Assembly: GCA_049593815.1 (NCBI GenBank)
Contig: JBAWHL010000531.1
Location: 1 to 42,306 of the forward strand
Reading direction: 5' to 3'
DNA length: 42,306 nt
From: Ilumatobacteraceae bacterium
Lineage (GTDB): Bacteria > Actinomycetota > Acidimicrobiia > Acidimicrobiales > Ilumatobacteraceae
Under the pieces are notes generated by a model. That model saw nothing but the letters and a program-made list of their open reading frames with translations, had not been told where the DNA came from and ran no database searches. The first letter of the stretch is position 1. Every line of letters starts with the position of its first letter. The position numbers and the translations under genes are program-made. Of the stretch, positions 3,826-33,909 are shown piece after piece.

Positions 3826-3829
3826 CGCA

Positions 3830-5068: not shown

Positions 5069-5137
5069 GACGTCCTTCGGGTCGGTTGATGGGTTCGGTG
5101 GAGGTGGTTGCGGTCGGTGAGGGTGCGGCGTGCGCGA

Positions 5138-6280
<1,143 letters not shown>

Positions 6281-6418
6281 CTGCGCCCTGCTCTCTCGGA
6301 CCCGGTGTTCATGCGAGGGGGAGAATAGCCCGGTTCACGCACGCGTTCGACGGCGTCGACGGGTCCTTCACGAAGCGGCAACAATCGGCCCGTTCACCCC
6401 CATCGCGCGTGGCAATCT

Positions 6419-7864
6419 GTGCGGATGGCAACGACGCTGTCTCAACTCAATTCCAACTTCATCGGTGGCGATTGGCAGGCCGCCGCCGACGGCGCGACCG
6501 ACGAGGTCGTCAACCCGGCAACCGGTGCCGTGATCGGGTCCGTGCCCGCGTCCGGCGCCGCCGATGTCGACGCCGCAGTGCACGCGGCGTCTGCCGCGTT
6601 TCCGGCCTGGGCAGCACTCACGCCGCGCGAGCGGAGCGAGATCCTCCACCGGGTCGCCGACATCGTCGACGACAACATCGAGGAGCTGTCGAAGATCGAG
6701 TGCGAGAACGTCGGCAAGCCTGTCGGGATCGTCGAGTTCGAGATGGACCTCACACAGGACAACTGGCGGTTCTTCGCCTCGGCCTGCCGCTTCCTCGAGG
6801 GCAAGGCGGCGGGGGAGTACATGTCCGGCTACACCTCGATGGTGCGGCGTGACCCGCTCGGGGTCGTTGCGTCGATCACCCCCTGGAACTACCCGCTGAA
6901 CATGGCGACGTGGAAGCTCGGTCCGGCCCTCGCCGCGGGCAACACCGTGGTGCTCAAGCCGTCCGAGCTCACGCCGTACTCGGTGCTGCGTCTGGCCGAA
7001 CTGACCGCCGACGTGCTGCCTCCCGGTGTGCTCAACGTGGTGTGCGGTCAGGGTCACGTGGCAGGCCAAGCGCTCAGCGAGCATCCGGACATCGCGATGA
7101 TCTCGATCACCGGCAGCGTCGGCGCCGGCAAGGCGGTCGCTCGTTCCTCGGCGGAGTCACTCAAGCGTGTGCATCTGGAACTCGGCGGCAAGGCACCGGT
7201 GATCGTCTTCGACGACGCCGACATCGAGGCCGCGATCGAGACGCTCAAGGGCATGGCGTACTACAACTCCGGTCAGGACTGCACCGCACCGTGTCGGGTG
7301 ATCGCCGGAGCCAAGGTCTATGACGACTTCGTCGCGGGATTGACCGACGCCGTCGGATCGATCGTCACGGGTGACCCGATGGCCGAGTCGACCGAGATGG
7401 GGCCGGTGGTGTCGTCGGCGCAGCTCGATCGCGTTGCCGGATTCGTCGATCGGGCACGCGAGGCCGGCGGTGAGGTGACCGTCGGTGGTCAGCGCAAGTC
7501 CGGCGCCGGGTTCTTCTACGAACCGTCCGTCGTCGTCGGCGTCGATCAGGCGTCGGAGATCATCCAGCGCGAGGTGTTCGGTCCGGTCGTCACGGTGCAG
7601 CCCGCGGCGGATGAGGAGACGGCGCTCGCCATGGCAAACGACGTCGACTACGGGCTCGCCGCGAGCGTGTGGACCGCCGACGTCGGCCGGGCGATGCGCA
7701 TGAGCAAGGCGCTGCAGTTCGGCGCGGTGTGGGTCAACGACCACATCCCGATCGTGTCGGAGATGCCCCATGGCGGCTTCAAGCAGTCCGGCTACGGCAA
7801 GGACATGTCGATGTACGCCGTCGAGGCCTACACCGAGGTCAAGCACGTCATGATCAAGCACTGA
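6419..7864 (+). CDS. patD: Gamma-aminobutyraldehyde dehydrogenase (NAD-dependent aldehyde dehydrogenase, PatD/YdcW type)
   Basis: 481 aa, with close recalled similarity to E. coli PatD along the whole length ([68 protein letters not shown]). The start is GTG 6419 or ATG 6425. It is divergent from the pot operon. Confidence 0.88.
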
Positions 7865-19105: not shown

Positions 19106-20208
19106 ACGTACTCCGCCGGGCCCCGTCCGAACCGTTGCTGCCATGCGACGGCGAGCGAGATGGCGACCACCCAGAACACGAGTGCGAACGCCAGGGCGGT
19201 GTCGATCCCGGCCGGTTCGATCCACCCCAGCCACTCCACGAGGACTTCGAACACCACGACGTGCAGGAGGTACAGCGTCAACGTCATCTGTCCCGCCCGT
19301 CGCAGGGGATCCGTCAGCTCCCGGTGACGGGTCGCCAGCCAGTCGAGGGCTGCGTACGCGATCAGCGCCGTGCCGAGCGCGCTGACCACATAGGCCACAC
19401 CACCCTCGAAGGGGCGGATCGACAGCACGACGTCGCCCCAGGTTCGCGTCGATCCGTCGACGGCCAGCGACGCGAGCGCGGCCGCGATCACCATCGTCGC
19501 GCCGAGGCCGAGTGCGGTCCGCCGCCACCACGAGGTGTGCAGGAGGCGGCCGAGCACGATGCCGGCACACAGGAAGCCGAGCCAGGGGAGCAGCGGATGG
19601 GTCCCGTTGACGACCACGCCGAATACGTAGCGATCAACCGACTGCGGATCGGGAGCGGTGAGCCAACGGGTGCTGTGGCCGGCGCGCTCCCGTTCGACGA
19701 CCCACCCACGCACGCCGGTGCCGGCAGCCACCGCGATCGATCCGATGAGGACGATCCAGCGCGTGCGCAGCGTGAACAGCGACGCAGCGATCACGAACAT
19801 CACGCCGTAGTACGGAAGGATCGTGCCGGGCCAGACCTGGTCGAGCAACAGTCCCACGACGTACAACAGGACGCCGCGCCGCGCCAGTCGCCAGCGGGCG
19901 GCGGTGACGCGATCGGGCGATCCGATGGAGCGGCGCGTGAGCAGGGTCACGCCGACGCCGGCGACCAGGACGAAGGTGGCCGCGAAACGTGTCGACAGGG
20001 GGCCGACCCACGGGTCGAAGAACATCGTCGACCAGCCGTCACCGATGGGGGAGCGCCCGCGGTCGGCCAGCAGGAGGTACCCGTGGTAGTTCATGACCAC
20101 GACGCCGATGAGCGCCACGGCGCGTACGACGTCGGGGCCCGGCAGGCGGTCTGCCGGAGCGGTCGGCGGTCGTGGGGCGTTCGGTCGTGGCGTGGGGGTC
20201 AGAGCCAT
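19084..20208 (-). CDS. DUF418/DUF1624 (YeiB-like) polytopic membrane protein
   Basis: 374 aa. RAVALIGVVVMNYHGYL and about 9 TM segments are typical of the YeiB/heparan-glucosaminide-acyltransferase-like family. Confidence 0.72.
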   Translation of the reverse strand: MALTPTPRPNAPRPPTAPADRLPGPDVVRAVALIGVVVMNYHGYLLLADRGRSPIGDGWSTMFFDPWVGPLSTRFAATFVLVAGVGVTLLTRRSIGSPDRVTAARWRLARRGVLLYVVGLLLDQVWPGTILPYYGVMFVIAASLFTLRTRWIVLIGSIAVAAGTGVRGWVVERERAGHSTRWLTAPDPQSVDRYVFGVVVNGTHPLLPWLGFLCAGIVLGRLLHTSWWRRTALGLGATMVIAAALASLAVDGSTRTWGDVVLSIRPFEGGVAYVVSALGTALIAYAALDWLATRHRELTDPLRRAGQMTLTLYLLHVVVFEVLVEWLGWIEPAGIDTALAFALVFWVVAISLAVAWQQRFGRGPAEYVYRSFGG

Positions 20209-21152
20209 TCGAATCGATCGACCGCCGTCGTGATCAGCGGGCGCTGGAGATCGACGCGATCGCCGATCGACGGCAGCGGATCACCGTCGGGGACGAACGC
20301 CATCGAGGTGTGCATGTGTGGCGGCTCGTGCAACGCCAGCCGTGTGCGCTCGAAGTGGAACGGGCTGAGGCCGCCAGCGAGTTCCGCAACGCCACCGGCG
20401 CTGCCCGCGCCGATCATGACGAGATGGCCCGATGCGGGCACGCTGGACAATCGGTAGCCGGCGCGATCGCCGCTGGCGATCGGCCGCACGTCGATCACAT
20501 CGGCAGTGAGCTGGAGGAACGACTTGTCCCCGTGCCAGAGCGCCGTGCCGAGGCGGAGTCGGTAGCGGCGCGCGGTGGGGAGCGCGGTGGGGAGCGCGGC
20601 GTAGTCGACCGGGTCGATGTGGCTCAGCCACACCGGGATCGCGGGGTCGATGTCGTCGATCGCGCGCACGATCTCGTCACGGTGATCGGCCGACGTCCCG
20701 GCGAGGGGCGGGTGGATGCTCACGCCGACGACCTCGAGCCCGGCGGCATCGGCCGCATCGATCAGGTGGGCGTCGCCGCCGAACCGTCGCATCGACGACG
20801 CGAGCTTCACGACGACTCGACCGTTCCACCCTGCGAGGGCGTCGATGTGGGCGTGGTGTCCCACGGTGAGGATCGGCGCCGTCGAGTCGGGCATGGTCAA
20901 CGTCGGCGTGAGGACCGCGACGTCGGTGCTGGTGCCGACCGCCGTCGAGCCGAGCACGTCGAGCACATCGAGTTCGTCGATCGTGCCCACGGCGATCGTG
21001 TCGCTGAACTCGGCAGCGATGCGGGCGAGCGCCAGCCGACCGAAGCCATAGCCGTTGCCCTTGACCACGGGGACCAGGCCATCGATGCTGCTGGCGACAC
21101 GAGCGACGTGGCTCCGCCACATCGCGGTACGCACGGTGAGCCGGATCGTCAC
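20199..21152 (-). CDS. Alanine racemase-family (fold type III PLP) protein
   Basis: C-terminal ~317 aa of ORF 20199..21401 (-), from the in-frame GTG 21152. VVKGNGYGFG matches the PLP-lysine motif of alanine racemases. Its stop overlaps the DUF418 start by 10 nt (ATGGCTCTGA). Confidence 0.68.
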   Translation of the reverse strand: MTIRLTVRTAMWRSHVARVASSIDGLVPVVKGNGYGFGRLALARIAAEFSDTIAVGTIDELDVLDVLGSTAVGTSTDVAVLTPTLTMPDSTAPILTVGHHAHIDALAGWNGRVVVKLASSMRRFGGDAHLIDAADAAGLEVVGVSIHPPLAGTSADHRDEIVRAIDDIDPAIPVWLSHIDPVDYAALPTALPTARRYRLRLGTALWHGDKSFLQLTADVIDVRPIASGDRAGYRLSSVPASGHLVMIGAGSAGGVAELAGGLSPFHFERTRLALHEPPHMHTSMAFVPDGDPLPSIGDRVDLQRPLITTAVDRFEWL

Positions 21153-21267
21153 CTCGTCGACGGTAGCTGGCCCGCACGGGCCCCAGCGGTCTGCGTCAGT
21201 GGCAAGGTTGCGCCCGGGCGTAATCCCGACTGTTCCGATCGGCTTTGTCGGCGATATCGTCCGGAGG

Positions 21268-21801
21268 ATGGCGACGACGTCGGTGTTCAGCTTCCCGAAT
21301 CCCGTGAACGAGACCTCCGCGCGTCTGGTCGCCGCTGGTGTGGTGGTGCAGGCCATCGCCTTCCTCGTGCTGCGTGAGGGCTGGATCCTGATCCCGCTCA
21401 CCTACGGATTCGCCGCCCGCGTCGCCACTGGACCGACGCTGTCGCCGCTCGGTCAGGTCTCGACCCGGATCGCGACGCCGTGGGTGGAGGCTCGTCGCCG
21501 GCGAGACGACCCGACGGTCGAGTCCCGACTGGTTCCCGGCCAACCGAAACGGTTCGCGCAGGCCATCGGTCTGGGGTTCACCGCCGCGGCATCGGTTGCC
21601 TGGATCGTCGGCGCACCGACGGTCGCACTCGTGCTGATCGTGATGCTCACCGTGGCGGCGACGCTCGAAGCCGTCGTCGCGGTGTGTCTCGGATGCATCG
21701 CCTACAGCGCGCTGTGGGGCTGCGCGGACTGCGACGACATCAGCGATCGTCTGCGCCGAGCGCTCGCCGAATCTCGTCAGCTCGCCGACGCTGACGCCTG
21801 A
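21268..21801 (+). CDS. DUF4395 family membrane protein
   Basis: In-frame ATG 21268 within ORF 21055..21801. About 177 aa with 4 TM segments, FPNPVNETSARLVA at the N-terminus and a Cys-rich tail CLGCIAYSALWGCADC. Confidence 0.65.
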   Translation: MATTSVFSFPNPVNETSARLVAAGVVVQAIAFLVLREGWILIPLTYGFAARVATGPTLSPLGQVSTRIATPWVEARRRRDDPTVESRLVPGQPKRFAQAIGLGFTAAASVAWIVGAPTVALVLIVMLTVAATLEAVVAVCLGCIAYSALWGCADCDDISDRLRRALAESRQLADADA

Positions 21802-21935
21802 TCGTCCTGCCGCCCGACTCGTGCCCGACCGTCGGCGTCGCGCTGGGCCGTTGCGTTGTGGCATCGAGCTGGGCCGTGGCGCTGGGCCGTCGCGCTGTGT
21901 CGATCGGTTGGCGCGGCAGCCGCGAATCGTGGTGG

Positions 21936-23261
21936 TCAGCGTGACGACGTGCGACCGGGCCACGCACGCAGACGCGGGATGATCGGGTCGGCGGTCCGGT
22001 GCCGGAACATCCCCGTCCACACCCCCCAGCCGTAGGCGACATCGGTCGGCGTCGACCTCGGATCTGCCACGACCGACGCCACCGCCAGCCATCGGCAACG
22101 GCGAGAGAACAGCGAGCCGAGGGCAACGAGCGGCCACCAGACGCGCCGCACGGCCGACGCGAGCTGCTGCCCCGCCAGCAGATGTCCACGCATCGCCAAC
22201 TCGAACGACGGACGGCGCGGCAGGCCGGGCAGCTTGCGTTCGAGTGCGGCGGCGCTGCCCACCGCGATCGTGACACCGGTCGCGAGGTGCCCGCCGAGGA
22301 CGGCCAGCCAGGCCGCCGCTGTCCAGCCATTGATCTGCACGGGGGAGAGCGCTCCGGGGTGCCGCAGCGCGAGCGGAGCGGCCGACGTGCCGTAGCCGGC
22401 GTGCTGACGCAGACGTGCCCGCCACGTCGATCGGGGCTCGTGCCACACGCTGATGGACGGATCGAATCGGCATCGCCACCCTGCTTGGTCGAGACGCCAG
22501 ACGAGATCGACGTCCTCGCCGAACCGCAGCCCCGGATCGAACCAGCCGACGGCGTCGAGCGCTTCGACCCGCACCAGCAGCGCGGCACCAGGGACGTAGC
22601 TGACCCGGGTCCCGGCCCGGATGCGCGCCGGTTCCCGACCGAGATCGAGCGGCGACGCGTTCTCGCCGGCAACCCGCGGGGCGACGAGCGCGACCGTCGG
22701 GTCGTCGAAGTGCCACAGCAACGGCTGGACCCAGTCGGCGAGGTCGGGCGGCACGGTCACGTCGGCATCGAGAAACGCCACGAGCGCGGTCCGCACCAGC
22801 GGGCGTGCAGCGTTGCGTGCCGCAGCCGGGCCCGCGTTGGTGTGCAGTCTGGCTGCGGCGCCGGCGAGTGGCGGCGTCGTGCCGTCGTCGATCGTCAGGC
22901 GGCCGTCGTCGTGGACGTCCCGGTGGATGTCCTGGTGGACGTGCTGGTGGATGTCCTGGTGGATGTCCTGGTGGATGTCACCCGCTGACGCTCGGCCGCG
23001 GGAGAGCGGGCCGTACTGCGGGGTGACGACGGTGACGTCCTCGGTGCCGAATCGAGGCGGCCGTCCGGGGTCGGGAAGCGGATGGATCGCCCCGGCGTCG
23101 AGCAGTCGATCGACCAGGTGCGATGCGTCGACGTCGTCGTCGGACTCGAGGCGTCGTGCCACTGCGGTGCCCGCGGCGGTGGTCCTGAAGACGCGCAGCG
23201 GCGAACCGGCGAGGATCAGCGAGCCGTGTCGACTCCACGAGCCATCGCGCCGGAACCGCAC
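21936..23261 (-). CDS. mftF: Mycofactocin-system glycosyltransferase (GT2), MftF-like
   Basis: ORF 21936..23414 (-); the likely start is GTG 23261, 1 nt after the mftE stop. Recalled similarity to mycobacterial MftF along the whole length: AGSPLRVFRTT, AFLDADV, DPTVALVAPRV, VSYVPGAA, GEDVDLVWRL, YGTSAAPLALRHP, SRRCRW, DVAYGWGVW. Confidence 0.78.
   Translation of the reverse strand: MRFRRDGSWSRHGSLILAGSPLRVFRTTAAGTAVARRLESDDDVDASHLVDRLLDAGAIHPLPDPGRPPRFGTEDVTVVTPQYGPLSRGRASAGDIHQDIHQDIHQHVHQDIHRDVHDDGRLTIDDGTTPPLAGAAARLHTNAGPAAARNAARPLVRTALVAFLDADVTVPPDLADWVQPLLWHFDDPTVALVAPRVAGENASPLDLGREPARIRAGTRVSYVPGAALLVRVEALDAVGWFDPGLRFGEDVDLVWRLDQAGWRCRFDPSISVWHEPRSTWRARLRQHAGYGTSAAPLALRHPGALSPVQINGWTAAAWLAVLGGHLATGVTIAVGSAAALERKLPGLPRRPSFELAMRGHLLAGQQLASAVRRVWWPLVALGSLFSRRCRWLAVASVVADPRSTPTDVAYGWGVWTGMFRHRTADPIIPRLRAWPGRTSSR
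22911..22982. repeat. 12-bp tandem repeat x6 (GTGGATGTCCTG-like) inside mftF, encoding (DIHQ)n
   Basis: Units at 22911, 22923, 22935, 22947, 22959 and 22971. The minus-strand in-frame translation is GDIHQDIHQDIHQHVHQDIHRDVHD. Confidence 0.92.
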
Positions 23262-23262
23262 G

Positions 23263-24048
23263 TCAACGCTGGGTGTCGAGGTCGAGTGGCCGCCAACGTT
23301 CGATCTGGTGGACGAGATCCTCGACGAACTGGCCGATGAACTTCTCGCCCTCGCGGCCCGACGCGCCGTCGGGGTCGCCGAGGACGCCGTTCGGGCTGAC
23401 CGCTCGGACGCCACGCGACCGCAGGTCGTCGATCGAGGCGTCCGCGCCCGCCTCGGCGAGCTCGAGTCTGACCAGGCCCGGATCGATCGCCAGCATCATC
23501 GAGGTCTCGATCCGCCCGGCGTGCAGGTCTGCAGGTCCGCCGTCGCGCCGACGGGGCCACGACGGCGTCCAGGCGAGCACCCGTCGACCTTCGGACTCGA
23601 GGGTCGCAGTCGCCACCGACACCGCTGCATGGTTCCCGCCGTGACCGTTCACGAGCACGACGCCGGCAGCCCAGTCGGCACTGCGCACGAGCTCGACGAT
23701 CACCATCGCGGTCGCCTCGGTTCCGATGGAGAGCGTCCCGGGGAATGCTGCGTGTTCGCCCGACGCGGTGACGCTCAGGGTTGGGCCGACCATCAGTCCG
23801 TCGGTGTGATGGATCGCGCGGCCGGCGAGCTCCTCGGCGATGAGCGTGTCGGTGGCGAGCGGCAGATGCGGCCCGTGTTGCTCGGTCGACCCGAGCGGGA
23901 TCAGCAGGATCGGGGCGGGGGTGGAGGCGGCCCCGCCCGGCGGCGACGTCGGCGACTCCCGATCGGTTCCTGCCGGCGACGTCCGTTGCGCAGGCGCGGA
24001 GCGGATGGCGTTGTCGACCTCGGTCCAGGTCGCGTCACCGAGTCGCAT
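23263..24048 (-). CDS. mftE: Mycofactocin maturation peptidase, creatininase family, MftE-like
   Basis: 261 aa. Motifs LGSTEQHGPHLPLATDT, SGEHAAFPGTLSIG, VNGHGGN, HAGRIETS and AVSPNGVLGDP. It lies immediately upstream of the MftF-like GT2. Confidence 0.78.
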   Translation of the reverse strand: MRLGDATWTEVDNAIRSAPAQRTSPAGTDRESPTSPPGGAASTPAPILLIPLGSTEQHGPHLPLATDTLIAEELAGRAIHHTDGLMVGPTLSVTASGEHAAFPGTLSIGTEATAMVIVELVRSADWAAGVVLVNGHGGNHAAVSVATATLESEGRRVLAWTPSWPRRRDGGPADLHAGRIETSMMLAIDPGLVRLELAEAGADASIDDLRSRGVRAVSPNGVLGDPDGASGREGEKFIGQFVEDLVHQIERWRPLDLDTQR

Positions 24049-24057
24049 CGGTGTCGC

Positions 24058-24870
24058 TCACGTGTCGGGGGCGTCGAGATAGCCCCAGTCGCGCAGTTGC
24101 TCGAGGATGCGGCGGGCCGCATCCGGCGGGTCGAGGGTGACGAGTTCGGCGTGGTTGTCGCCGCCACCGACGTCCAGGATCTGGCGGACGCGTTCGAGTG
24201 AGTCGCCACGCGGTGCGGCGACCGCACGGGTGCGCGGGCGATACGGCTGCACCTCGGCCTCGGAGGGCTGTCCGGGTGGACCGGTGACCGTGGCGACCTC
24301 GGCTCGGCGCGTCGCCAACGACGCCGCCATCGGCGCTCGTCGCAGGCGGGCGACCGCTCCCTCCACGGACAACACGGCGGGCACGTCGACATCGAGGATC
24401 TCGCGGCGGCCACCGTCGAGCCGCCGCGTCACCCGGAGCGAGCCGAACGTCGGTCCCTGCGGTTCGACACTGACGAGTCCGAGTGCTTGGGCGCACCCGA
24501 GTTCGTCGGCGATGAAGGCGGGCACCGAGCCGGTGCCGCGGTCGACGGATGCATCACCGCAGAGCACGAGATCGGCGTCGGTTGCGTGCGCCGCGAGCGC
24601 CGCAGCGACGACCCGGCTGTCGAGTTCGGACGAGGCGTCGATGCGCGTGACGTGGTCGGCCCCGACCGCCAGCGCAGTGCGCAGTGCGTCGTCGGCAGCC
24701 GCGGACCCCACGCACACCACGTGGACCGTCGCCGGCGGGTCGGCGGACGCAGCGAGCGTGAGCGCGGTCTCGAGTGCTGCCTCGTCGGCGTTCGAGACAC
24801 CCGACCAGCGCGGGTCGGCGATGCGTTCGGCGTCGAGCGACACCCACTTCCAACAGACGAGGATCTTCAT
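24058..24870 (-). CDS. etfB: Electron transfer flavoprotein beta subunit (EtfB/FixA)
   Basis: 270 aa. MKILVCWKWV..., DEAALETALTLA and LVLCGDASVDRGTGSVPAFIADELG are typical of ETF beta. Confidence 0.9.
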   Translation of the reverse strand: MKILVCWKWVSLDAERIADPRWSGVSNADEAALETALTLAASADPPATVHVVCVGSAAADDALRTALAVGADHVTRIDASSELDSRVVAAALAAHATDADLVLCGDASVDRGTGSVPAFIADELGCAQALGLVSVEPQGPTFGSLRVTRRLDGGRREILDVDVPAVLSVEGAVARLRRAPMAASLATRRAEVATVTGPPGQPSEAEVQPYRPRTRAVAAPRGDSLERVRQILDVGGGDNHAELVTLDPPDAARRILEQLRDWGYLDAPDT

Positions 24871-24951
24871 CGTGGGTGACTGTTCATCGTGCTGGTCGGC
24901 TCATCGTGCTGGTCGGCTCATCGTGTGGGTCGGTTCGTCCTGCGGGCCGTC
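24867..24951. repeat. 17-bp tandem repeat x5 between fixX and etfB (TCATCGTGCTGGTCGGC-like)
   Basis: TCAT occurs at 24867, 24884, 24901 and 24918, followed by a degenerate TCGT at 24935. The fixX stop (TCA) follows at 24952. The period is exactly 17 throughout. Confidence 0.92.
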
Positions 24952-25248
24952 TCAGGACCGCTTGAAGACGACACCGTGGCCGCCCTCGGGATAGGTCCAG
25001 GTGATCGCGCCGTCCTTGTTGCAGACGAGGTAGCAGGTGCCGCACTCGAAGCACTGCTCGTAGTTGAACAGGATGCCGCCGTCGCTGGTCGGGACGAACA
25101 GCTTCGCGGGACACGCCACGACGCACTCGCGCGTCGAGCAGTCGGCGCAGATGCCGTCGTCGACGGTGATGTGCGCGCGCTCGTGCACGTCGAAACGGGT
25201 CGAACCGATGAGATCCTCGAACGACACATCCGGCCAGCGTTCGATCAT
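24952..25248 (-). CDS. fixX: Ferredoxin-like protein FixX
   Basis: 98 aa. CADCSTRECVVACPA...CFECGTCYLVC and the size are typical of FixX. Its ATG overlaps the fixC stop (ATGA). Confidence 0.9.
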   Translation of the reverse strand: MIERWPDVSFEDLIGSTRFDVHERAHITVDDGICADCSTRECVVACPAKLFVPTSDGGILFNYEQCFECGTCYLVCNKDGAITWTYPEGGHGVVFKRS

Positions 25249-26558
25249 CCGAAGCTCCGCATTCCGTCGATGGCGTCGCGAGCGAGATCGCGCATTCTGA
25301 CCCCGGCGCGTTTGCGTTCGTCGTTGAGGATGCGTCGGAGGCCGGGCTTCGGCGTGGGGTTGTCGACGCGGAACATGCGCTCCACCGTATTGGCGATCAT
25401 CTCCGGGTAGAGGTGCTGGACGCGATCGGACAACACGAGCGACGGCGCCCGGCGAAGCTTGCGATGATCACGCAGCACGAACGTCTCGTTCAGACGGCGT
25501 TCGTATCCGGCGAGCCCCGCCTCGGACGGGTCGCCCTTGGCGAGTGCCTCGGCGGCGGCTTCACCGGCGTACATGCCACTCGCCATGGCGAAGTTGACCC
25601 CCTCGAGCCAGATGCCGGCCGCGAGACACAGCGCCGCAGCATCGCCGGCGACGAGCAGGCCGTCGCCGGTCATCTTGGGCATCATCTCCAGGCCGGCTTC
25701 GGGAATCACGTGCGCCGAGTACTCCTTGACCTCACCGCCTTCGACCAGCGGGGCGATGCCCGGATGTGACTTGAGGTTGGCGATGATCTCCTCGGGCCGT
25801 CGCTGCTGAGCAGCCAGCTTGGGGAGCTTCAACACGACGCCGACGGCGAGCGTGTCGAGGTTGGTGTAGACGAACCCGCCGCCGTTCACCCCCGACGTGC
25901 CACCGAGGATCTCGATGTCGACGCCCTCGCGGTCGCGGACGGCGAAGCGCTCGTCGATGACCTCCTTCGGCAGCGCGATCGTCTCTTTGACACCGACGGT
26001 GTAGTTGGCCGCGTCGACCTCGCCGTACAGCCCCGCTTCCTTGGCGAGAAAGCTGTTGACGCCGTCGCAGGCGATCACGATCGGCGCGTGCAGGTCGCCG
26101 TCGGGGCGGTCGGTGCGCACGCCCGTGACCGTGCCCCGCTCGTCGCGCAACAACCCCGTCACCGTCGTCGAACACACGAGGAGCGCGCCGTCGGCCTCGG
26201 CCTTCGATGCCAGCCAATGGTCCCAGTCCGGTCGGTAGGCGGTGGCGCCGTTGTACGGCGGCTTGCCCCAGTCGGCCGATCGGAAGTCGACGGTGAGCGC
26301 CTGGGTGTCGGTGAGGATCATGGTGGACCGACGGGTGATCCACCGCTGGATGGGTGCGTCCTCCCACCACTTCGGATGCAGCTGGTCGAGGATGCGCGGG
26401 TAGACGACGCCGCCGTACATGTTCTTCGATCCGGGGAACGTGCCGCGTTCCAGCAACACGACCGAATGGCCCTTTCGTGCCAGCACGGTGGCGGCTGCCG
26501 CTCCTGCGGGGCCGGCACCGACGACGATCGCGTCGAAGCTGGTCGAGGTGTCATGCAT
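25245..26558 (-). CDS. fixC: FAD-dependent oxidoreductase FixC (ETF:quinone oxidoreductase-like)
   Basis: ORF 25245..26582 (-). The Rossmann motif FDAIVVGAGPAGAAAA is present. ATG 26558 overlaps the etfA stop as ATGCATGA; 26582 is the alternative start. Confidence 0.9.
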   Translation of the reverse strand: MHDTSTSFDAIVVGAGPAGAAAATVLARKGHSVVLLERGTFPGSKNMYGGVVYPRILDQLHPKWWEDAPIQRWITRRSTMILTDTQALTVDFRSADWGKPPYNGATAYRPDWDHWLASKAEADGALLVCSTTVTGLLRDERGTVTGVRTDRPDGDLHAPIVIACDGVNSFLAKEAGLYGEVDAANYTVGVKETIALPKEVIDERFAVRDREGVDIEILGGTSGVNGGGFVYTNLDTLAVGVVLKLPKLAAQQRRPEEIIANLKSHPGIAPLVEGGEVKEYSAHVIPEAGLEMMPKMTGDGLLVAGDAAALCLAAGIWLEGVNFAMASGMYAGEAAAEALAKGDPSEAGLAGYERRLNETFVLRDHRKLRRAPSLVLSDRVQHLYPEMIANTVERMFRVDNPTPKPGLRRILNDERKRAGVRMRDLARDAIDGMRSFG

Positions 26559-27549
26559 CGTCGGCTCCCGTCGCGTCGGCATCCACGGGGTCTGCCGCGG
26601 GTTCGGTCGTCGTGTCGATCTCGGGCTCCGGCTCGTTCGCGAGCAACCGACGCAACTCGGCGAGTGTCTCGTTGGCGTCGCTCACGACCGCGAGGTCCGA
26701 CATCACCATCATCGGGCAGTGCGGGTCGGTGTTGACGCTGATGATGTGTTCGGGGTGCCCGAGTCCGCTCGTGTGCTGCACCGCGCCGCTGACGCCGAAG
26801 GACAGGTACAGCACCGGGTCGACGACGACGCCGGTGGTACCGATCTGGCGGTCGTGGTGCACCCATGACCGGTCGGTGATCACGCGGGTCGCCCCCATCA
26901 CCCCGCCGATCGACACGGCGAACTGGTCGAGTTGGGTGAACCGCTCCTCGGTGTCGAGACCGGCGCCGCCGCCGACGATCCGTCGAGCTTCGGCGAGGTC
27001 CATGGTCTGCACGTCGGGTGGGAGCACGTCGACGACGACCGCGTCGCGACACGCCGCAGACGCCGCGGCATCGGTGCCAGCGCTTCCGGGGTGGACACTG
27101 ATCGTCGGTGGTTCGGCGATGTCGAGCGGCTCGCGCACGCCCGCCTCCAGCGTGGCGACGAACGGACCACCCGGGCGACGCTCGTGGAGTTCCAGTCCGC
27201 CACGACGTGCGAGCCGCACGCGGTGCGCCGTGATCTCGGTTGCCCCCGAGAGCAGCGGGCGGTCGAGCCTCGCCGCGAGTCGGGGAGCGAGGTCGCGCCC
27301 GTCGGGAGTGTGTGGCAACACGACGATCGCCGAGTCGTCGAGGTCTTCGACGATCGGAGCGAGCGTCGCCGCCCATCGGGCGGGCTCCACTGCGCCGAGT
27401 TCGACCAACAGCGCGTCGGTGGCGATGCCGACGACGTCGGCGGTGTCGGTGGCCGACCCGGCGATGATCACGCGACCAGCGCACTCGGCGATCGCCTCGG
27501 CCGCGCCGGCGGGCAGGACGCCGTCACGAACCGGAACCACAGCGATCAT
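26551..27549 (-). CDS. etfA: Electron transfer flavoprotein alpha subunit (EtfA/FixB)
   Basis: In-frame ATG 27549 within ORF 26551..27780 (-), 332 aa. The FAD-binding C-terminal half contains VLYLSFGVSGAVQHTSGL and IISVNTDPHCPM. Confidence 0.9.
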   Translation of the reverse strand: MIAVVPVRDGVLPAGAAEAIAECAGRVIIAGSATDTADVVGIATDALLVELGAVEPARWAATLAPIVEDLDDSAIVVLPHTPDGRDLAPRLAARLDRPLLSGATEITAHRVRLARRGGLELHERRPGGPFVATLEAGVREPLDIAEPPTISVHPGSAGTDAAASAACRDAVVVDVLPPDVQTMDLAEARRIVGGGAGLDTEERFTQLDQFAVSIGGVMGATRVITDRSWVHHDRQIGTTGVVVDPVLYLSFGVSGAVQHTSGLGHPEHIISVNTDPHCPMMVMSDLAVVSDANETLAELRRLLANEPEPEIDTTTEPAADPVDADATGADDA

Positions 27550-28208
27550 TCGTCCAGCGTACGGTCGTCGTCGACAGCGTGTGCAATCTCGTCGTCCGAT
27601 CCGCGCTCGCGGATCCACCGGATGATTTCGACGAGTGCGGTCAACCCCAGCGCGGTGCCGAAGGCCAACCAGAACGCGAGCGAGTGGTCGTCTTCGAAGG
27701 CCTGACCGAAGATGTAGCCGAGCACGGCCGCATAGGTCGCCCAGATGACGCCGGCGACCGCCACCCAGGCGGCGAACCACGCCCGAGGTTGTTCGGTGAG
27801 CCCGGACGACACCGTCAGCAGGGTGCGACCGCCGGGGATGAATCGGGCGGTGATGAGCAGTGGGCCGCCGCGTTTGCGGATCTGGGTGTGGGCCTGTTCG
27901 AAGCGCACGAGTCGTTGTTCCTTGCGCTTCGCCCAGGTCTCGAGGCGGGGACGGAAACGGCGGCCGATCGTGTAGGCCAGGTTGTCGCCGAGGAACGCCC
28001 CGAGCGCGCCCGCCAGGATGACCAGCGCCAGCTGCTGATTGCCCGCGCCCGCAGCGACGCCGCCGGCGATGACGGTCGTCTCACCCGGCACGATCGGCAG
28101 GATCGAGTCGAGCAGGGCGACCGCGAAGATGATCAGCAGGAACCACCAGTTCGACGAGAATTCGTCGAGCCAGTCGGTGAGGTCGGTGATGATGTTGGCC
28201 AGGATCAT
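27546..28208 (-). CDS. DedA family (VTT/SNARE-associated domain) membrane protein
   Basis: 220 aa. LPIVPGETTVIAGG and FLGDNLAYTIGRRF are DedA hallmarks. Its stop overlaps the etfA start (ATGA at 27546-27549). Confidence 0.88.
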   Translation of the reverse strand: MILANIITDLTDWLDEFSSNWWFLLIIFAVALLDSILPIVPGETTVIAGGVAAGAGNQQLALVILAGALGAFLGDNLAYTIGRRFRPRLETWAKRKEQRLVRFEQAHTQIRKRGGPLLITARFIPGGRTLLTVSSGLTEQPRAWFAAWVAVAGVIWATYAAVLGYIFGQAFEDDHSLAFWLAFGTALGLTALVEIIRWIRERGSDDEIAHAVDDDRTLDE

Positions 28209-28234: not shown

Positions 28235-30781
28235 TCAGTCGGCGGTGATCTGGATTCGCAGCCGGCGGTGTTCAGCCGCCGACGACGACGCGATCACGAG
28301 GTCGTACTCGCCGGGTTCGGTCCGCCACGCTGCGGTCGCCAGGTCCCAGTGATGGAACGCGTCGGCACCGAACGTCACGGACGCCGTCGTCGTCGTGCCG
28401 GCGGGCACGACGAGCTTGGTCCACGACCGCAGCTCCTTCGGCGGTCGCGACACGGTGCCGTCGATCGGGGCGACGTACCCCTGCACGACCACCGTGGCGT
28501 CGCGGGCTCCGGGCGCGGTGATCGGGATCGTGACCGTCACGGCAGGGTTCGCGGCCGACACCGTCGTCCGGTCGGCCTGCGGGTCACCCCACTCGGCCGC
28601 GCCGTAGCTGAGCCCATGGCCGAACGCGAACCGAGGCTCGAGACTGCGGGCCTCGTACCCGCGGTAGCCCATGAAGAGCCCCTCGCCGTAGCGCTGGGTG
28701 CCGGCGCCGGTGCTGTCGTGGTCGGGCTGGTGGTGGACGTAGGCCGGATGGTCTTCGAGTCGCTTCGGATACGTCGTGGGCAGTCGACCGCCGGGGTCCG
28801 CAATCCCGAGGAGGACGTCGACGAGCCCTTCGGCCTGCTCCTGCCCGGCGAAGAACGACGTCAGGATCGCGGGCGCCGCGCCCGGGTCGGCGGGGTCGGC
28901 CCAGTCCATCGTGACGGGCGAGCCCGCATTGACGACGACGGCCGTGTTGGGATTCGCGGCGACGACCCGCCGGATGAGTTCGTCCTGGTTGCCCGGCAGG
29001 TCCATCGTGGTGCGGTCGTGGCCCTCGGTCTCCCACTCGTCGTTGGTGCCCGCGACCACGATCACGGCGTCGGCGGCCGCCGCGGCGTCGACGGCGCGGT
29101 CGAGCAGGTCCGCCGGTTGGGGCGGTCGGATGCCGACGCGCAGGGCGGCGAACCCGTTGCCAGCGGCCGTCGACCAACGGAACGCGAGGGGGACCGCGAC
29201 ACCAGCGGTGCACTCGATCGTCTCGGTGACCTCGATGCTGCCGTAGCCGAAGAACTCCTCCCCGCGGGGGAGTGAGCCGTCGGGGTCGTCGACGATCGTG
29301 GTCATCCCGTCGCCCGGATCGGCGGTGACCGACACCGGGCCGGTGCTGACGACACCGATCGTGTGGGGTCCGTCGATGTCGGGAATGAACGCACCGTCGA
29401 CGCGTGCGGAGAACGCTCGCGGGTCGATGCCTTCGGGGGTGGAGCCGAAGAAGCGCACCATCGTCGACGACGCCGGCTGCTCGAGGACGGTCTCGGCGTT
29501 CCAGTCGGTGCCGTTGACGTAGGACACCGTCAGGCCGGGGTCGCCGGTCGGCGTGCGGAGCTGGCCCTTGCGCACGATCGGGGTCAGCCGGTCGATCAAC
29601 ACGCCGGGTTCGTGCACGACGGTTGCGTTCGTCGCCGAGCCCGGCCCGATCCGATCGGTGATCGCCGCGAGAAGCGTGCGGTGCCCGAACGGTGTGAGCG
29701 ACGCGGAACCGCCGCCCATGCACCGGTCGATCGACGCGTTCGGACCGACGACGGCGACCGTACGGATCGTCGTCGCGTCGAACGGGAGGACCGGCGACGT
29801 CGTGCCCCCGGTGGTCGTCACGGGTTCGTTGCGCAGCAGCACGGTGCCGGCGATCGCGGCCCGGCGGGTCAGGGCGCGTTCGGTGGGGTCGTCGACGGAG
29901 GTCTCCTCGACGTCGCAGGAGCGTTCGTCGGCGTGCGTGCGATTGGCGAGCACGAGCAGGTCGCGCACGAGTCGGTCGACCTGTGCCTCGTCGACGTCAC
30001 CGCGTTCGACCGCCGCCACGAGCTTGTCGCCGTAGATCCGCACCGGGCCGGGCATCTCGAGGTCGAGCCCGGCGTTCGCCGCGCCGACGGCGTCGTGCAC
30101 GCCGTACCAGTCCGAGACGACGAAGCCGTCGAAGCCCCACTCCTCACGCAGGATCTCGGTCAGCAGTCGCCGGTTCTCTGCGCAGTGCTGCGTGTCGAGG
30201 CGGTTGTAGGCGCTCATGATGCCCCACGCGTTCGCCTCCTTGACCGCCCGCTCGAAGGGTCGAAGGTAGAGCTCGCGCAGCGTGCGCTCGTCGACCTGCG
30301 CATCGACGGACATCCGCTCGATCTCGGTGTCGTTCGCCACGAAGTGCTTGACCGTCACCGCCACGTCGTGGGACTGGACGCCGGTGACGTAGGCAACGGC
30401 GAGCGCACCGGTCAGTTCGGGGTCCTCGCTGTAGCACTCGAAGGTGCGGCCGCCGACCGGGGTGCGGTGGAGGTTGACCGTGGGGCCGAGCACGATGTGG
30501 GCGCCCTTGCGGCGGCCCTCGGTGCCGATCAGTCGACCGATCTCCTCGACGATCGCCGGATCCCACGTGGCGCCGAGGGTGATGCCGGAGGGAACGACGA
30601 CGCCCGGGGTGCCGGAGCCGCCGTAGCCCTCGCCGCGCACGCCGTTGGGCCCGTCGGACATCTTCAGCTGCGGGATCCCGGCTTCGGGGAACGCGCAGGT
30701 CCGCCACGTGCTCTTGCCTGCAACGAGCCGGCACTTGTCGTTCAAGCTGAGCGCGGCCACTGCCGCATCGATGTCGATCAC
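28235..30781 (-). CDS. Glycoside hydrolase family 3 beta-glucosidase (BglX-like, with C-terminal Fn3-like/PA14-type regions)
   Basis: ORF 28235..30940 (-). KMSDGPNGVR, the GFDGFVVSDW nucleophile region, and the length. The preferred start is GTG 30781 (VIDIDAAVAALSLNDKCRLVAG), because the upstream 53 codons cross palindromic repeat elements. Confidence 0.88.
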   Translation of the reverse strand: MIDIDAAVAALSLNDKCRLVAGKSTWRTCAFPEAGIPQLKMSDGPNGVRGEGYGGSGTPGVVVPSGITLGATWDPAIVEEIGRLIGTEGRRKGAHIVLGPTVNLHRTPVGGRTFECYSEDPELTGALAVAYVTGVQSHDVAVTVKHFVANDTEIERMSVDAQVDERTLRELYLRPFERAVKEANAWGIMSAYNRLDTQHCAENRRLLTEILREEWGFDGFVVSDWYGVHDAVGAANAGLDLEMPGPVRIYGDKLVAAVERGDVDEAQVDRLVRDLLVLANRTHADERSCDVEETSVDDPTERALTRRAAIAGTVLLRNEPVTTTGGTTSPVLPFDATTIRTVAVVGPNASIDRCMGGGSASLTPFGHRTLLAAITDRIGPGSATNATVVHEPGVLIDRLTPIVRKGQLRTPTGDPGLTVSYVNGTDWNAETVLEQPASSTMVRFFGSTPEGIDPRAFSARVDGAFIPDIDGPHTIGVVSTGPVSVTADPGDGMTTIVDDPDGSLPRGEEFFGYGSIEVTETIECTAGVAVPLAFRWSTAAGNGFAALRVGIRPPQPADLLDRAVDAAAAADAVIVVAGTNDEWETEGHDRTTMDLPGNQDELIRRVVAANPNTAVVVNAGSPVTMDWADPADPGAAPAILTSFFAGQEQAEGLVDVLLGIADPGGRLPTTYPKRLEDHPAYVHHQPDHDSTGAGTQRYGEGLFMGYRGYEARSLEPRFAFGHGLSYGAAEWGDPQADRTTVSAANPAVTVTIPITAPGARDATVVVQGYVAPIDGTVSRPPKELRSWTKLVVPAGTTTTASVTFGADAFHHWDLATAAWRTEPGEYDLVIASSSAAEHRRLRIQITAD

Positions 30782-30869: not shown

Positions 30870-32852
30870 TCAGACGGCGGCGCCGGCGCGTTCGCCCTCG
30901 ACGACGGCGGCATGGGCTCGGCGGGGGGCGACGCAGTCACCGACTCGTTCGACGCTCACACCAGCGGCTCGGAGATCGTTGTAGAGCCACTCGACCGGGT
31001 TGGCCTGGACGGCGAGGACGACCCAGTCGGGCGTTCGGGTCTGGCTCGTGCCGGTCGGGTGATGTTGCAGGTGCAGGGTGAGGCGCGCCGGCGAATCATC
31101 GGATGACGTCTCGGGTGCGGGCTCCAGGTCGGTGACGATCAGATCGGTCGTCTGGACGATGCCCTTCTCGCCGGCACGGATCCACCAGTTCTCCATGTCG
31201 AGGGTGATGCCGAGGTCCTGGCCGACGACCATCCCCGGTGTGATGATCTCGACGTCGCAGCCACGATCGGCCAGCACCTCTGCCGTCGACGTCGCATGGT
31301 GGAAGCCGATCTCGTCGAACACGATGACCGTGCCCGACGGGTGCACCGAACCGTCGAGGACCCGGCGCACGTCGACGACGTTGGTCGCTTCCTCCGGCGC
31401 CCAGTACGGCCGTGCCGGCTCGGCGCCGGTCGCGACGATCACGTGATCTGGGCGCTGCTCCTCGACGAGGCCCGGCCAGACCCCGACGCCGTACTCGAAT
31501 TCGACACCGAGGCGTCGACACTCGGTGACCTGGTTGCGGATCATGTCGCCGAACTCGGCACGGTTGGGCACGCTCGCGGCGAGCCTGACCTGGCCGCCGG
31601 CCTCGGTGTCCTGCTCGTAGACCGTCACGTGGTGTCCGTTGCGACGTGCGGCGATCGCCGCCTGCAACCCGGCGGGTCCAGCGCCGACGACCATGACCGA
31701 CTTCGGCTTGCGGGTGAGGTCGACCGTGCCGACGCCCTCGGACTCGCGCCCGGTGCGTGGGTTCTCGATGCACCCGAGCCAGCGGTTCAGTCCCATGCGG
31801 CCCACGCACTCCTGGTTGCACGACAGGCACAGGCGGGTCTCGTCGGTCGATCCGGCGCGGGCCTTGGCGGCGAACTCGGCGTCGGCGATCTGCCCGCGCA
31901 CGACGCCGACGAGGTCGCACTGTCCCTCCGCGAGCGCACGTTCGGCCTGCAGCGGGTCCTTGAACCGCCCGACACCCACGACGGGCAGGTCGACGGCCTT
32001 GCGAATCGCTGACGGGATGAACATCGCGTAGCCCGGCGGAACGTGCATCGACGCCTCGATCATGAACAGGCTGGCGGTGGCGACACCGATCGAGGTGTTG
32101 ATGTAGTCGACGTGGCCGGTCGCTTCGACGATCTGGGCGATGCGCACCGCGTCGTCGATGGTCGTGCCGTGTTCGATCAGTTCGTCTCCGCAGATGCGCA
32201 CGCCGAGGGCCAGGCGCCCGCCGATCGCCTTGCGGACGGCGGCGACGATCTCGACGAGGATTCGGGCCCGGTTCTCCAGCGATCCGCCGTACTCGTCGGT
32301 GCGCCGGTTGGTGGCGGGGGAGAGGAAGCCGCGCACGATCGAGGAGTGCGAACACTGGAGTTCGATGCCGTCGAAGCCGCCTTCGGCGCAGTGCTCGGCG
32401 ACCAGTGCGTAGCCGGCGACGATCTCGTCGATCTCGGCGTGCGTCACGGCCTTGGGCACTTCGCGGAACAAGGGGTCGGCGACCGCGGACGGGGCCCACA
32501 CCGGCAGCCGGGAGAACATCGACGAGGCCTGACCGCCGTTGTGGTTGATCTGGGCGAAGATCGGCACCCGGTGGCGGTGGACCGCGTCGGTGATCTTGCG
32601 GTACCCCGGGATGACGTCGCGGTGGAAGCCGTGGATCAGCTTCTCGTACGGCCAGTCCGTTGGATGGGTGGAGTGTTCCTCGGTGATGATCAGGCCCGTG
32701 CCGCCTGCGGCTCTGGCTGCGTAGTACGCGGCGTGCTGGTCGGTCGGCAGCCCGTTGCGGGCGTAGTTGGTCAGGTGCGCGGAGAAGACGATTCGGTTGC
32801 GCACCTCGACGGGGCCGAGCTCGAGCGGGGACCAGAGATAGCGGTAGGCCAT
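30870..32852 (-). CDS. OYE/FadH-type NADH:flavin oxidoreductase (2,4-dienoyl-CoA reductase-like; FMN + 4Fe-4S + FAD/NAD domains)
   Basis: 660 aa. It has an Old Yellow Enzyme TIM-barrel N-terminus, a Cys cluster (CLSCNQECVGRMGLNRWLGC), and a C-terminal Rossmann motif VMVVGAGPAGLQAA. Confidence 0.88.
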   Translation of the reverse strand: MAYRYLWSPLELGPVEVRNRIVFSAHLTNYARNGLPTDQHAAYYAARAAGGTGLIITEEHSTHPTDWPYEKLIHGFHRDVIPGYRKITDAVHRHRVPIFAQINHNGGQASSMFSRLPVWAPSAVADPLFREVPKAVTHAEIDEIVAGYALVAEHCAEGGFDGIELQCSHSSIVRGFLSPATNRRTDEYGGSLENRARILVEIVAAVRKAIGGRLALGVRICGDELIEHGTTIDDAVRIAQIVEATGHVDYINTSIGVATASLFMIEASMHVPPGYAMFIPSAIRKAVDLPVVGVGRFKDPLQAERALAEGQCDLVGVVRGQIADAEFAAKARAGSTDETRLCLSCNQECVGRMGLNRWLGCIENPRTGRESEGVGTVDLTRKPKSVMVVGAGPAGLQAAIAARRNGHHVTVYEQDTEAGGQVRLAASVPNRAEFGDMIRNQVTECRRLGVEFEYGVGVWPGLVEEQRPDHVIVATGAEPARPYWAPEEATNVVDVRRVLDGSVHPSGTVIVFDEIGFHHATSTAEVLADRGCDVEIITPGMVVGQDLGITLDMENWWIRAGEKGIVQTTDLIVTDLEPAPETSSDDSPARLTLHLQHHPTGTSQTRTPDWVVLAVQANPVEWLYNDLRAAGVSVERVGDCVAPRRAHAAVVEGERAGAAV

Positions 32853-32922
32853 GACGCCGCCAACGGTACCCGCCGCGGTCCTCCCCGGCCCTCCCCGGTC
32901 CGCCCCGCCACCGCGACGCCAA

Positions 32923-32957
32923 GTGTTACATCAGGGGTCAGACCCCTGATGTAACAC
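32923..32957. repeat. Perfect 35-bp palindrome GTGTTACATCAGGGGTC-A-GACCCCTGATGTAACAC
   Basis: The 17-bp arms are exact reverse complements around A32940. It lies in the divergent region between the OYE (start 32852, -) and SDR (start 33043, +) genes. Confidence 0.95.
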
Positions 32958-33042
32958 CGGATGCAACACTCGTGTCGCTGCCGCACCGGCCGGTGCCGAG
33001 ACGGTCCCGATTCCGGCCGGGGTGCCCGTCTACATTTGGGCG

Positions 33043-33909
33043 ATGTCCGATGATGCGAACACGAACGATGCGCGCCCGTCTGCTGGATCGCCTGCGATCG
33101 CCCCGGGGAACGTCGCCGTCATCACCGGTGGAGCCAGCGGAATCGGGCTGGCCGTCGCCGAGGCACTGATCGCGAAGGGCATGAAGGTGATCCTCGCCGA
33201 CATCGACGCACCGAAGCTGCGCGACGTCGAGGCGCGACTCACCGAATCGGGCGCCGAAGTGGCCACCATGATCTGCAACACCGCGGCCGAGCCCGAGATC
33301 AACGCGCTCGCCGAGTTCGCGCTCGAACAGTTCGGCGGGGCCCACGTCCTCTTCAACAACGCCGGCATCGGCGGTGTCGGCGATGCCTGGTCCGACCCGG
33401 TCGACCTGTGGCGTCGCGTCATCGACATCAACCTGATGGGCGTCGTCTACGGCATCCGCGCGTTCCTCCCGATCATGCGGCAGCAGGGCGTCGGACACAT
33501 CGTCAACACCGCGTCGATGGCAGGTCTCGGACCGGTGCCCGGCGCGGCGCCGTACGCGGCGACCAAGCACGCCGTCGTGGGGCTGAGCGAGAGTCTGTAT
33601 CTGGAGCTCGTCGCGACCGCCGACCCGGTGAGCGTGAGCGTCCTGTGCCCCGGTTTCGTCAAGACCGATCTGATGAACAAGGAGCCCGACGAGGTCGAGT
33701 CGCCGATCGGGCAGTTCATCAACCAGCTCCTGCGCGCCGGGGTGGACGGCGGGATCCCCGCGAGTGACGTCGGCGACGCGGTCGCGGCGGCGATCGAGGC
33801 GCAACAGTTCTGGATCCTGACGCACCCGGACATGTTCGAGGGTGCCGTCGAGCGCGTCCAGCGCGCGGTCACCCAGACCAACCCGCCGATGTTCGGCGCC
33901 GAGGCCTGA
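33043..33909 (+). CDS. Short-chain dehydrogenase/reductase (classical SDR)
   Basis: In-frame ATG 33043 within ORF 33022..33909. TGGASGIG, NNAG and YAATK motifs. Confidence 0.9.
   Translation: MSDDANTNDARPSAGSPAIAPGNVAVITGGASGIGLAVAEALIAKGMKVILADIDAPKLRDVEARLTESGAEVATMICNTAAEPEINALAEFALEQFGGAHVLFNNAGIGGVGDAWSDPVDLWRRVIDINLMGVVYGIRAFLPIMRQQGVGHIVNTASMAGLGPVPGAAPYAATKHAVVGLSESLYLELVATADPVSVSVLCPGFVKTDLMNKEPDEVESPIGQFINQLLRAGVDGGIPASDVGDAVAAAIEAQQFWILTHPDMFEGAVERVQRAVTQTNPPMFGAEA

Follow-up and report, generated by a model that had tools for sequence, protein, structure and literature searches.

An ETF–FixCX–OYE module associated with mftE and mftF in Ilumatobacteraceae: a candidate respiratory link for mycofactocin loci devoid of MftD and MftG

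Mycofactocin is a peptide-derived redox cofactor required for mycobacterial alcohol metabolism. A route for its re-oxidation is known only for organisms that possess MftG, and about 25% of MftC-positive genomes lack this protein, the substitute being called an open question in the MftG paper. A contig from an Ilumatobacteraceae bacterium (JBAWHL010000531.1), analysed here over its whole length of 42,306 bp (referred to as the window), raises a related question: why are two mycofactocin genes, mftE and mftF, found directly downstream of genes encoding both subunits of an electron transfer flavoprotein (ETF) and their FixC and FixX partners? As judged from the sequence, the window probably contains the distal half of an ETF-type mycofactocin system devoid of MftD and MftG, in which electrons would flow from an OYE oxidoreductase through the ETF and FixCX to menaquinone, providing a link to respiration. 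A first-pass annotation of this DNA had already proposed that the ETF module is genetically linked to mycofactocin maturation and may serve as an electron route; we find the linkage conserved, and we judge the proposed role to be reasonable and the most sensible reading of the locus.

The assignment of the module to mycofactocin biology relies on curated NCBIfam models. By their profile scores, EtfA (positions 26551–27549; this gene and all those of the block described below lie on the minus strand) and EtfB (24058–24870) belong to the mycofactocin-associated ETF alpha and beta families, with 337.5 bits against NF038209 (cut-off 240) and 213.6 bits against TIGR04503 (cut-off 200), respectively. 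Likewise, the product of the first gene of the block (30870–32852), referred to as OYE_2, scores as a member of the curated family of mycofactocin-system FadH/OYE oxidoreductases 2 (TIGR03997), reaching 966.9 bits for a cut-off of 793.15. The closest EtfA homologues, 68–75% identical, come from metagenomes and metagenome-assembled genomes (MAGs), one of them labelled Ilumatobacteraceae, and 190 clusters (defined at 50% identity) match the EtfB family at E ≤ 1e-30. No mycofactocin-specific NCBIfam model exists for FixC and FixX. Sequence comparison identifies both as orthologue-grade relatives of the menaquinone-reducing EtfC and EtfX subunits of the Thermotoga maritima EtfABCX complex (PDB code: 7KOE): FixC, an ETF:quinone oxidoreductase-type flavoprotein (25245–26558), matches 7KOE_C over its full length with 271 bits, and FixX, a ferredoxin-like protein (24952–25248; Pfam Fer4_9), matches 7KOE_D with 64.8 bits and has eight cysteines, i.e. 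enough for two 4Fe-4S clusters. In EtfABCX, electrons leaving the ETF flavin reach menaquinone along this branch, by way of two 4Fe-4S clusters and an FAD.

OYE_2 comprises an FMN barrel, a 4Fe-4S motif and an FAD/ADP-type domain (Pfam Oxidored_FMN and Pyr_redox_2). When aligned to 3K30, 6L6J and 1DJQ, it follows histamine dehydrogenase along its full length, whereas its alignment with E. coli FadH extends only up to residue 483 and does not take in the C-terminal domain. Its cluster motif, CxxCxxxCx11C, is conserved and all four cysteines are retained everywhere, unlike in OYE_1, the companion enzyme found in some related loci (TIGR03996), where the second 4Fe-4S Cys is replaced by Thr in Prauserella muralis and in a Saccharomonospora species (loci L057 and L060), giving CVLTNQKC or CTLTNQKC. 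Across 15 OYE_1 and OYE_2 sequences, the second dinucleotide site is devoid of a glycine-rich loop and reads DE[IL]GFH[HQ]ATS in OYE_2 and DP[VI]G.. in OYE_1. Altogether, OYE_2 displays the build of trimethylamine and histamine dehydrogenases, with an FMN barrel, a CxxCxxxC...C motif and a C-terminal domain without NAD(P)H motif.

Trimethylamine dehydrogenase, which belongs to the same fold family as OYE_2, hands its electrons to an ETF dedicated to it, and PDB entry 1O94 is the structure of the two in complex. The OYE enzymes have no recognisable NAD(P)H site, and we propose that these Fe-S flavoenzymes act like trimethylamine or histamine dehydrogenase, that is, that they would oxidise a substrate of the mycofactocin pathway and reduce the ETF dedicated to them. 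Candidate substrates are the amine AHDP and mycofactocinol, corresponding to the steps of MftD and MftG, respectively, and either or both may be used; from there, the electrons would travel to the OYE FMN, the 4Fe-4S cluster, the ETF FAD, FixX, FixC and finally menaquinone. Transfer from mycofactocinol to menaquinone would be downhill, as their potentials are −255 mV and −74 mV, respectively. The module would then constitute the respiratory link, and possibly also an oxygen-independent premycofactocin synthase, where MftD and MftG are both missing. The oxidative deamination of AHDP without oxygen is an attractive second role because OYE_1 fills the mftD slot and relatives of the OYE enzymes oxidise amines. 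The more ambitious version of this proposal, in which OYE_1/OYE_2, EtfAB and FixCX replace both MftD (AHDP to premycofactocin) and MftG (mycofactocinol re-oxidation) in an oxygen-independent, respiration-coupled manner, is put forward more tentatively, as a possibility that falls somewhat short of even chances; if true, it would tell what takes the place of MftG in the roughly 25% of MftC-positive genomes devoid of it.

The same four subunits could also be read as a bifurcating FixABCX-type enzyme, in which NADH (or mycofactocinol) and menaquinone would be used to produce reduced ferredoxin or flavodoxin, for instance as the low-potential reductant required by the radical-SAM enzyme MftC. Bifurcating EtfABCX is indeed made up of these four subunits, the FixC and FixX sequences closely resemble their counterparts in the solved bifurcating complex 7KOE, and the best solved match of EtfA is a bifurcating ETF, that of Acidaminococcus (4KPU_A, 97 bits), though just 5 bits above a canonical ETF (1EFP_A, 92 bits). 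However, both EtfA matches are weak, and EtfAB are about equally far from bifurcating and canonical ETFs: EtfB scores 44–47 bits against both kinds, its best solved relative, the Methylophilus W3A1 ETF (1O94_C, 47 bits), leading by a trivial margin, and the scores obtained with the 7KOE chains are 81 bits for EtfA and 39 bits for EtfB. Besides, classical systems mature mycofactocin without any ETF module; split loci, the window among them, keep the module with mftE/mftF and OYE_2, not with mftC; and, according to published potentials, bifurcation to ferredoxin would be roughly isoenergetic with mycofactocinol as the donor. On balance we hold bifurcation to be unlikely, and electron transfer to menaquinone for respiration to be the better account of the module.

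How widely is the module associated with mycofactocin genes? A survey was anchored on MftF: the best 80 of 580 relatives were taken as species-level loci, each extended by 10 kb on either side, and searched by tblastn with reference proteins. EtfA-FixC-FixX-EtfB adjoins mftE/mftF in 45 of the 80 loci, so that the ETF/FixCX adjacency pointed out in the first-pass annotation is conserved among MftE/MftF homologues. The block is found across Acidimicrobiia and Actinomycetes, and it is contiguous with mftA-B-C and OYE_1 in some genomes. The order of the window, OYE2-GH3-DedA-EtfA-FixC-FixX-EtfB-MftE-MftF, is identical in L001–L003; L011–L014 match it from GH3 onward, where their flank starts, and L019 from DedA. 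Block genes are 55–90% identical among relatives (82–90% for FixC in L001–L003, L011–L014 and L019), and the comparison of the window with a Streptomyces plasmid cluster gives 65% identity for OYE_2, 63% for FixC, 47% for EtfA and 47% for EtfB. The end of the block differs between lineages, with the order ...EtfB-MftE-MftF in Acidimicrobiia and ...EtfB-SDR-MftF-MftE in Streptomyces, Prauserella, Saccharothrix, Saccharopolyspora and Actinoallomurus.

The early mycofactocin genes enter this picture through 11 of the 45 ETF loci, in which mftC is also present within the fetched flank, mostly as part of one contiguous block. L023 reads MftA-B-C-OYE1-OYE2-DedA-EtfA-FixC-FixX-EtfB-MftF, and L055, L057, L058, L077, L081 and L082 read MftA-B-C-OYE1-OYE2-EtfA-FixC-FixX-EtfB-SDR-MftF-MftE. 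The description given in the first-pass annotation, in which mftE and mftF were appended to a DedA–ETF operon, is therefore misleading, as the ETF block of the relatives lies inside contiguous mftABC...mftF clusters. In ETF clusters, OYE_1 mostly stands directly after mftC, in other words in the slot of mftD in classical clusters. MftD itself is absent from the window and from all 45 ETF-bearing loci, ETF and MftD being found together in 0 of the 80 loci, and MftG was seen only together with MftD. When only loci with 8 kb or more of sequence upstream of mftF are counted, the ETF occurs in 37, MftD in 7 and neither of the two in 14 (Fisher p = 4e-4, without correction for phylogeny).

If the ETF, FixCX and OYE proteins served an ordinary catabolic dehydrogenase pathway, their adjacency to mftE/mftF would imply no direct functional tie. 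ETF–FixCX modules do serve unrelated pathways elsewhere (fixABCX and ydiQRST of E. coli), and some Ilumatobacter mftE-mftF loci are without the module. Yet the adjacency is kept in the 45 loci mentioned above, which span two classes and 47–65% protein identity, the block is embedded in contiguous mftABC...mftF clusters, and the dedicated family models built by the NCBI curators rest on mycofactocin association. We thus regard this explanation as improbable and retain the mycofactocin-dedicated electron path as the favoured one.

If so, where are the early genes in the lineage of the window? In agreement with the first-pass annotation, which had reported no mftB, mftC or mftD, neither these genes nor mftA were found by NCBIfam scans of the plausibly coding open reading frames (ORFs) of the window, picked by codon-position GC; six-frame tblastn of the 42-kb window with MftB, MftC, MftD, MftG and MftR queries gave no match, and no ORF of the window ends in the MftA signature G[VI]Y*. 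Nor were mftABC found within 10 kb in the window-like relatives L001–L003, L011–L014 and L019. Ilumatobacter coccineus, an Ilumatobacteraceae species, is MftC-positive in the published MftC/MftG table. In the lineage of the window, mftABC would thus lie elsewhere in the genome, the window being a split form of the cluster. Another split form was observed in MAG contigs L009, L010 and L091–L093, where mftR-mftA-mftB-mftC are followed by SDR genes, with no mftD, mftE or mftF nearby, within a conserved context (Patatin-Rhomboid-...-OsmC-G6PD); two of these contigs have a GMC oxidoreductase gene a few kb off. Four MAG contexts of MftC are such split mftR-mftABC-SDR loci, and none comes from an assembly with an ETF locus.

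The two mycofactocin genes present in the window are predicted to encode late maturation enzymes. The peptidase MftE frees the modified core peptide from the precursor. The 261-aa product of mftE (23263–24048) exceeds the cut-off of TIGR03964 (233.8 bits against 172) and gives 189.5 bits with Pfam Creatininase; its translation contains EQHGPHLPLATD, NGHGGN and HAGRIETS, which we take to be the metal-ligand motifs of the creatininase family, all of them intact. It also contains the AVSPNGVLGDP stretch from which the first-pass annotation had recognised MftE, an identification that the curated model bears out. The same annotation had proposed the 441-aa product (21936–23261) as MftF, a GT2 glycosyltransferase, and had counted a score below the MftF model as evidence to the contrary. 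The score is indeed narrowly below, with 264.8 bits on TIGR03965 for a cut-off of 280, i.e. 15 bits short; the GT2 motifs and the synteny speak for MftF. The GT2 columns D125-D126, D165/D167 and GEDVDL are invariant in a seven-sequence MftF alignment, which also reveals that the protein of the window is divergent, with deletions relative to other MftFs and an insert made of repeats. This insert is lineage-specific, 30 aa long and rich in HQDI/HQDV units, is missing from the MftFs of L001 and L002, and is partly encoded by a 12-nt × 5.8 tandem repeat (22911–22979). It is not the reason for the low score, since the protein without it scores 261.6. The MftFs of the relatives score 273–453 overall on the same model (285.5 in L001, 273.3 in L002, 369.9 in L023 and 433.9 in L040), and a genome scan places the MftF of the window nearest to those of Ilumatobacteraceae MAGs, with up to 68% identity. 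It adjoins mftE, and syntenic loci form a chain leading to contiguous mftABC-...-mftF clusters; synteny thus supports its orthology to MftF despite the sub-cut-off score.

That the locus could be a remnant, or be repurposed for some other glycosylated product, its MftE- and MftF-like proteins no longer making mycofactocin and mftABC being gone, would fit the divergent, sub-cut-off MftF with its deletions and repeat insert and the absence of mftABC from the 42-kb window and from within 10 kb in L001–L003, L011–L014 and L019, but we give it little chance, given the intact motifs of MftE, the 55–90% identity of all block genes among relatives, which argues for selection, the MftC of Ilumatobacter coccineus in the published table and the graded series of loci that links the arrangement of the window to contiguous full clusters.

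Several observations nonetheless weigh against a dedicated path from mycofactocin to menaquinone. Besides the MftF score reported above, EtfAB are so remote from solved ETFs (47–97 bits) that their flavin content and partner are unreadable from sequence. MftC was not linked to the contigs carrying ETF loci, either with a Streptomyces MftC query or with an Acidimicrobiia MftC profile; the MftCs among the matches listed share at least 78% identity, and near-identical MftCs filled both searches. The statistic on the mutual exclusion of ETF and MftD does not account for shared ancestry and covers no more than 10 kb on either side. L060 has OYE genes without ETF; L038, L039 and L089 consist of mftABC-DedA-mftE-mftF without ETF, OYE or MftD in the surrounding 10 kb, and L079 is similar except that no mftE was detected; finally, some Ilumatobacter mftE-mftF loci have unrelated upstream genes. 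Because L060, L038, L039, L089 and L079 exist, the ETF module is not obligatory at the locus level.

The extent and layout of the block can now be specified. The first-pass annotation had described seven minus-strand genes, from dedA (27546–28208) to mftF, with coupled junctions. The coordinates and the junctions it listed are those read from the sequence: dedA/etfA overlap by ATGA (27546–27549), etfA/fixC by ATGCATGA (26551–26558) and fixC/fixX by ATGA (25245–25248), etfB and mftE are separated by 9 nt (24049–24057), and mftE and mftF meet at TGAcGTG (23259–23265), mftF starting 1 nt past mftE. The coupling fails at fixX/etfB, the sole junction from dedA to mftF that is neither overlapping nor at most 9 nt long. 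Here, an 81-nt spacer (24871–24951) contains 2.9 copies of a 17-nt tandem repeat (24884–24933), and the corresponding spacer is about 20 nt long in L001 and L002. Note that the repeat unit includes ATG and GA-rich stretches. What the first-pass annotation overlooked is that the block goes on upstream of dedA on the same strand: a gene for a GH3 beta-glucosidase-like protein with a PA14 insert (28235–30781) has its stop 26 nt ahead of dedA, and is preceded by the gene of OYE_2. Since GH3 and OYE_2, the latter defined by TIGR03997, continue the block, the mycofactocin-related region spans about 21.9–32.9 kb rather than 21.9–28.2 kb. A terminator and promoter scan of the window, uninformative for a GC-rich organism, returned no terminators and one weak promoter-like site on the plus strand. 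Two further tandem repeats flank the block, a 10 nt × 3.2 repeat (32876–32907) in the divergent region upstream of OYE_2 and a 13 nt × 4.8 repeat (21836–21897) just past the mftF stop; either could be operator- or terminator-like.

Mycofactocin bears beta-1,4-glucose chains, and for this reason the GH3 protein could trim the sugar tail of the cofactor. It matches NF052330 with an E-value of 3e-169, under the cut-off of this model, and contains the Pfam domains Glyco_hydro_3, Glyco_hydro_3_C, PA14 and Fn3-like. Its start is uncertain: the GTG at 30781 gives 848 aa, and the ORF is open up to 30940. The gene is found in the same position in L001–L003 and L011–L014; in the 80-locus survey it is present in six loci, namely L011–L014 and, as a weaker, 40%-identical match downstream on the opposite strand, L027 and L051. 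DedA (Pfam VTT_dom, 70.4 bits), a membrane protein, is encoded in 17 of the 80 MftF-anchored loci, some of which have no ETF module. Its gene lies directly between mftC and mftE in L038, L039 and L089 and directly before mftF in L079; as these four loci have no ETF, OYE or MftD within 10 kb, DedA is tied to the mycofactocin genes independently of the ETF.

Downstream of mftF, a DUF4395 gene (21055–21801, plus strand, convergent with mftF; Pfam DUF4395, 106.8 bits) and an Ala_racemase_N-like gene of the fold-type III PLP group (20199–21401, minus strand; Pfam Ala_racemase_N, 35.1 bits), whose true start is probably near 21116, recur in most window-like relatives, DUF4395 again on the opposite strand. 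In the survey as a whole, they are present downstream of mftF in 37 and 44 of the 80 loci, respectively. Because they are conserved in loci without ETF as well, both genes may belong to the mycofactocin system of Acidimicrobiia without having been recognised as such. An SDR gene (32950–33909) was considered as a mycofactocin-coupled SDR and rejected, as its top matches include no mycofactocin SDR model and its identity to a true member is 30%. Further away, a potABCD-type polyamine ABC transporter beside an aminobutyraldehyde dehydrogenase (1906–7864) forms an ordinary, unrelated putrescine-utilisation cluster. Two side observations concern the surveyed genomes. L023, L028 and L033 are MAGs titled Bifidobacterium (two B. 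breve and one uncultured species) with Acidimicrobiia-like mycofactocin/ETF clusters, and their labels look wrong; in L070, from a MAG with a Chloroflexia label, mftA, mftF and an apparently frameshifted mftC lie close to FixC, FixX and an ETF-like gene of 33% identity.

To what extent is this association new? The first-pass annotation knew of no description of it, which holds for papers, as we found none in the literature searched in which mycofactocin and either "electron transfer flavoprotein" or "ETF" both occur, but not for databases. NF038209 and TIGR04503 are named after the association, and in the RefSeq (PGAP) annotation of two Streptomyces plasmids, NZ_CP107797 and NZ_CP016083, the ETF subunits bear the mycofactocin-associated label and lie within mftABC...mftFE clusters devoid of mftD and mftG. 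The linkage is thus conserved and catalogued in databases, and hence not new. "Group 5" ETFs are described in the literature as uncharacterised. What the survey adds is that mycofactocin-associated ETF, FixCX and OYE mark loci without MftD and MftG, and that the genera carrying the ETF module are MftG-negative in published tables; in the table of the MftG paper, the MftC-positive, MftG-negative organisms include Ilumatobacter coccineus, Iamia, Aquihabitans, Prauserella marina and five Saccharopolyspora species. One MftD-less genus, Saccharopolyspora, demonstrably produces mycofactocin: the BGCFlow paper describes 17 Saccharopolyspora clusters without mftD and with TIGR03997, and S. erythraea makes a methylated mycofactocin. 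What was a label in databases becomes, with the survey, an electron path that is concrete and can be tested; to this, the window contributes a split, GH3-bearing variant from an uncultured Ilumatobacteraceae lineage, as an example of the family rather than a discovery by itself.

Compared to the members of the NF038209 and TIGR04503 families, the locus of the window is of the same kind: its EtfA and EtfB lie above both cut-offs and its neighbourhood is that of RefSeq-annotated members, the differences being the separation from mftABC and the inserted GH3 gene. It shares homologues of MftE and MftF with the classical mftR/mftG/mftA-B-C-D-E-F clusters of Mycobacterium and of a Streptomyces sp. 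NBC_00080 plasmid (L007), and the relatives of the window have an identical MftA C-terminus (IDGMCGVY) and a highly conserved MftC in common with these clusters. In contrast, MftD and MftG are absent from the window, and in the ETF type OYE_1/OYE_2 and EtfAB–FixCX are found instead. Compared to Thermotoga maritima EtfABCX, the four subunit types are the same and FixC and FixX are clear homologues of the menaquinone branch, whereas EtfA and EtfB are very divergent and the gene order in the window is alpha-C-X-beta. OYE_2 resembles the trimethylamine dehydrogenase that pairs with ETF in Methylophilus W3A1 (1O94) and histamine dehydrogenase in its FMN-barrel/4Fe-4S/ADP-FAD-type build, in the absence of a glycine-rich NADPH motif and in being encoded near an ETF; the whole of OYE_2 aligns with histamine dehydrogenase and most of it with trimethylamine dehydrogenase, although OYE_2 scores higher against FadH and naphthoyl-CoA reductase (about 248 bits) than against these amine dehydrogenases (169–179 bits). 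Finally, MftG, a GMC mycofactocinol dehydrogenase linked to respiration, and MftD, the FMN-dependent premycofactocin synthase, have no homology to the proteins of the ETF module. We propose, from their complementary distribution, that the ETF/OYE module is a functional analogue of MftG and MftD, because ETF-type loci have neither MftD nor MftG nearby and belong to genera that are MftG-negative in the published tables.

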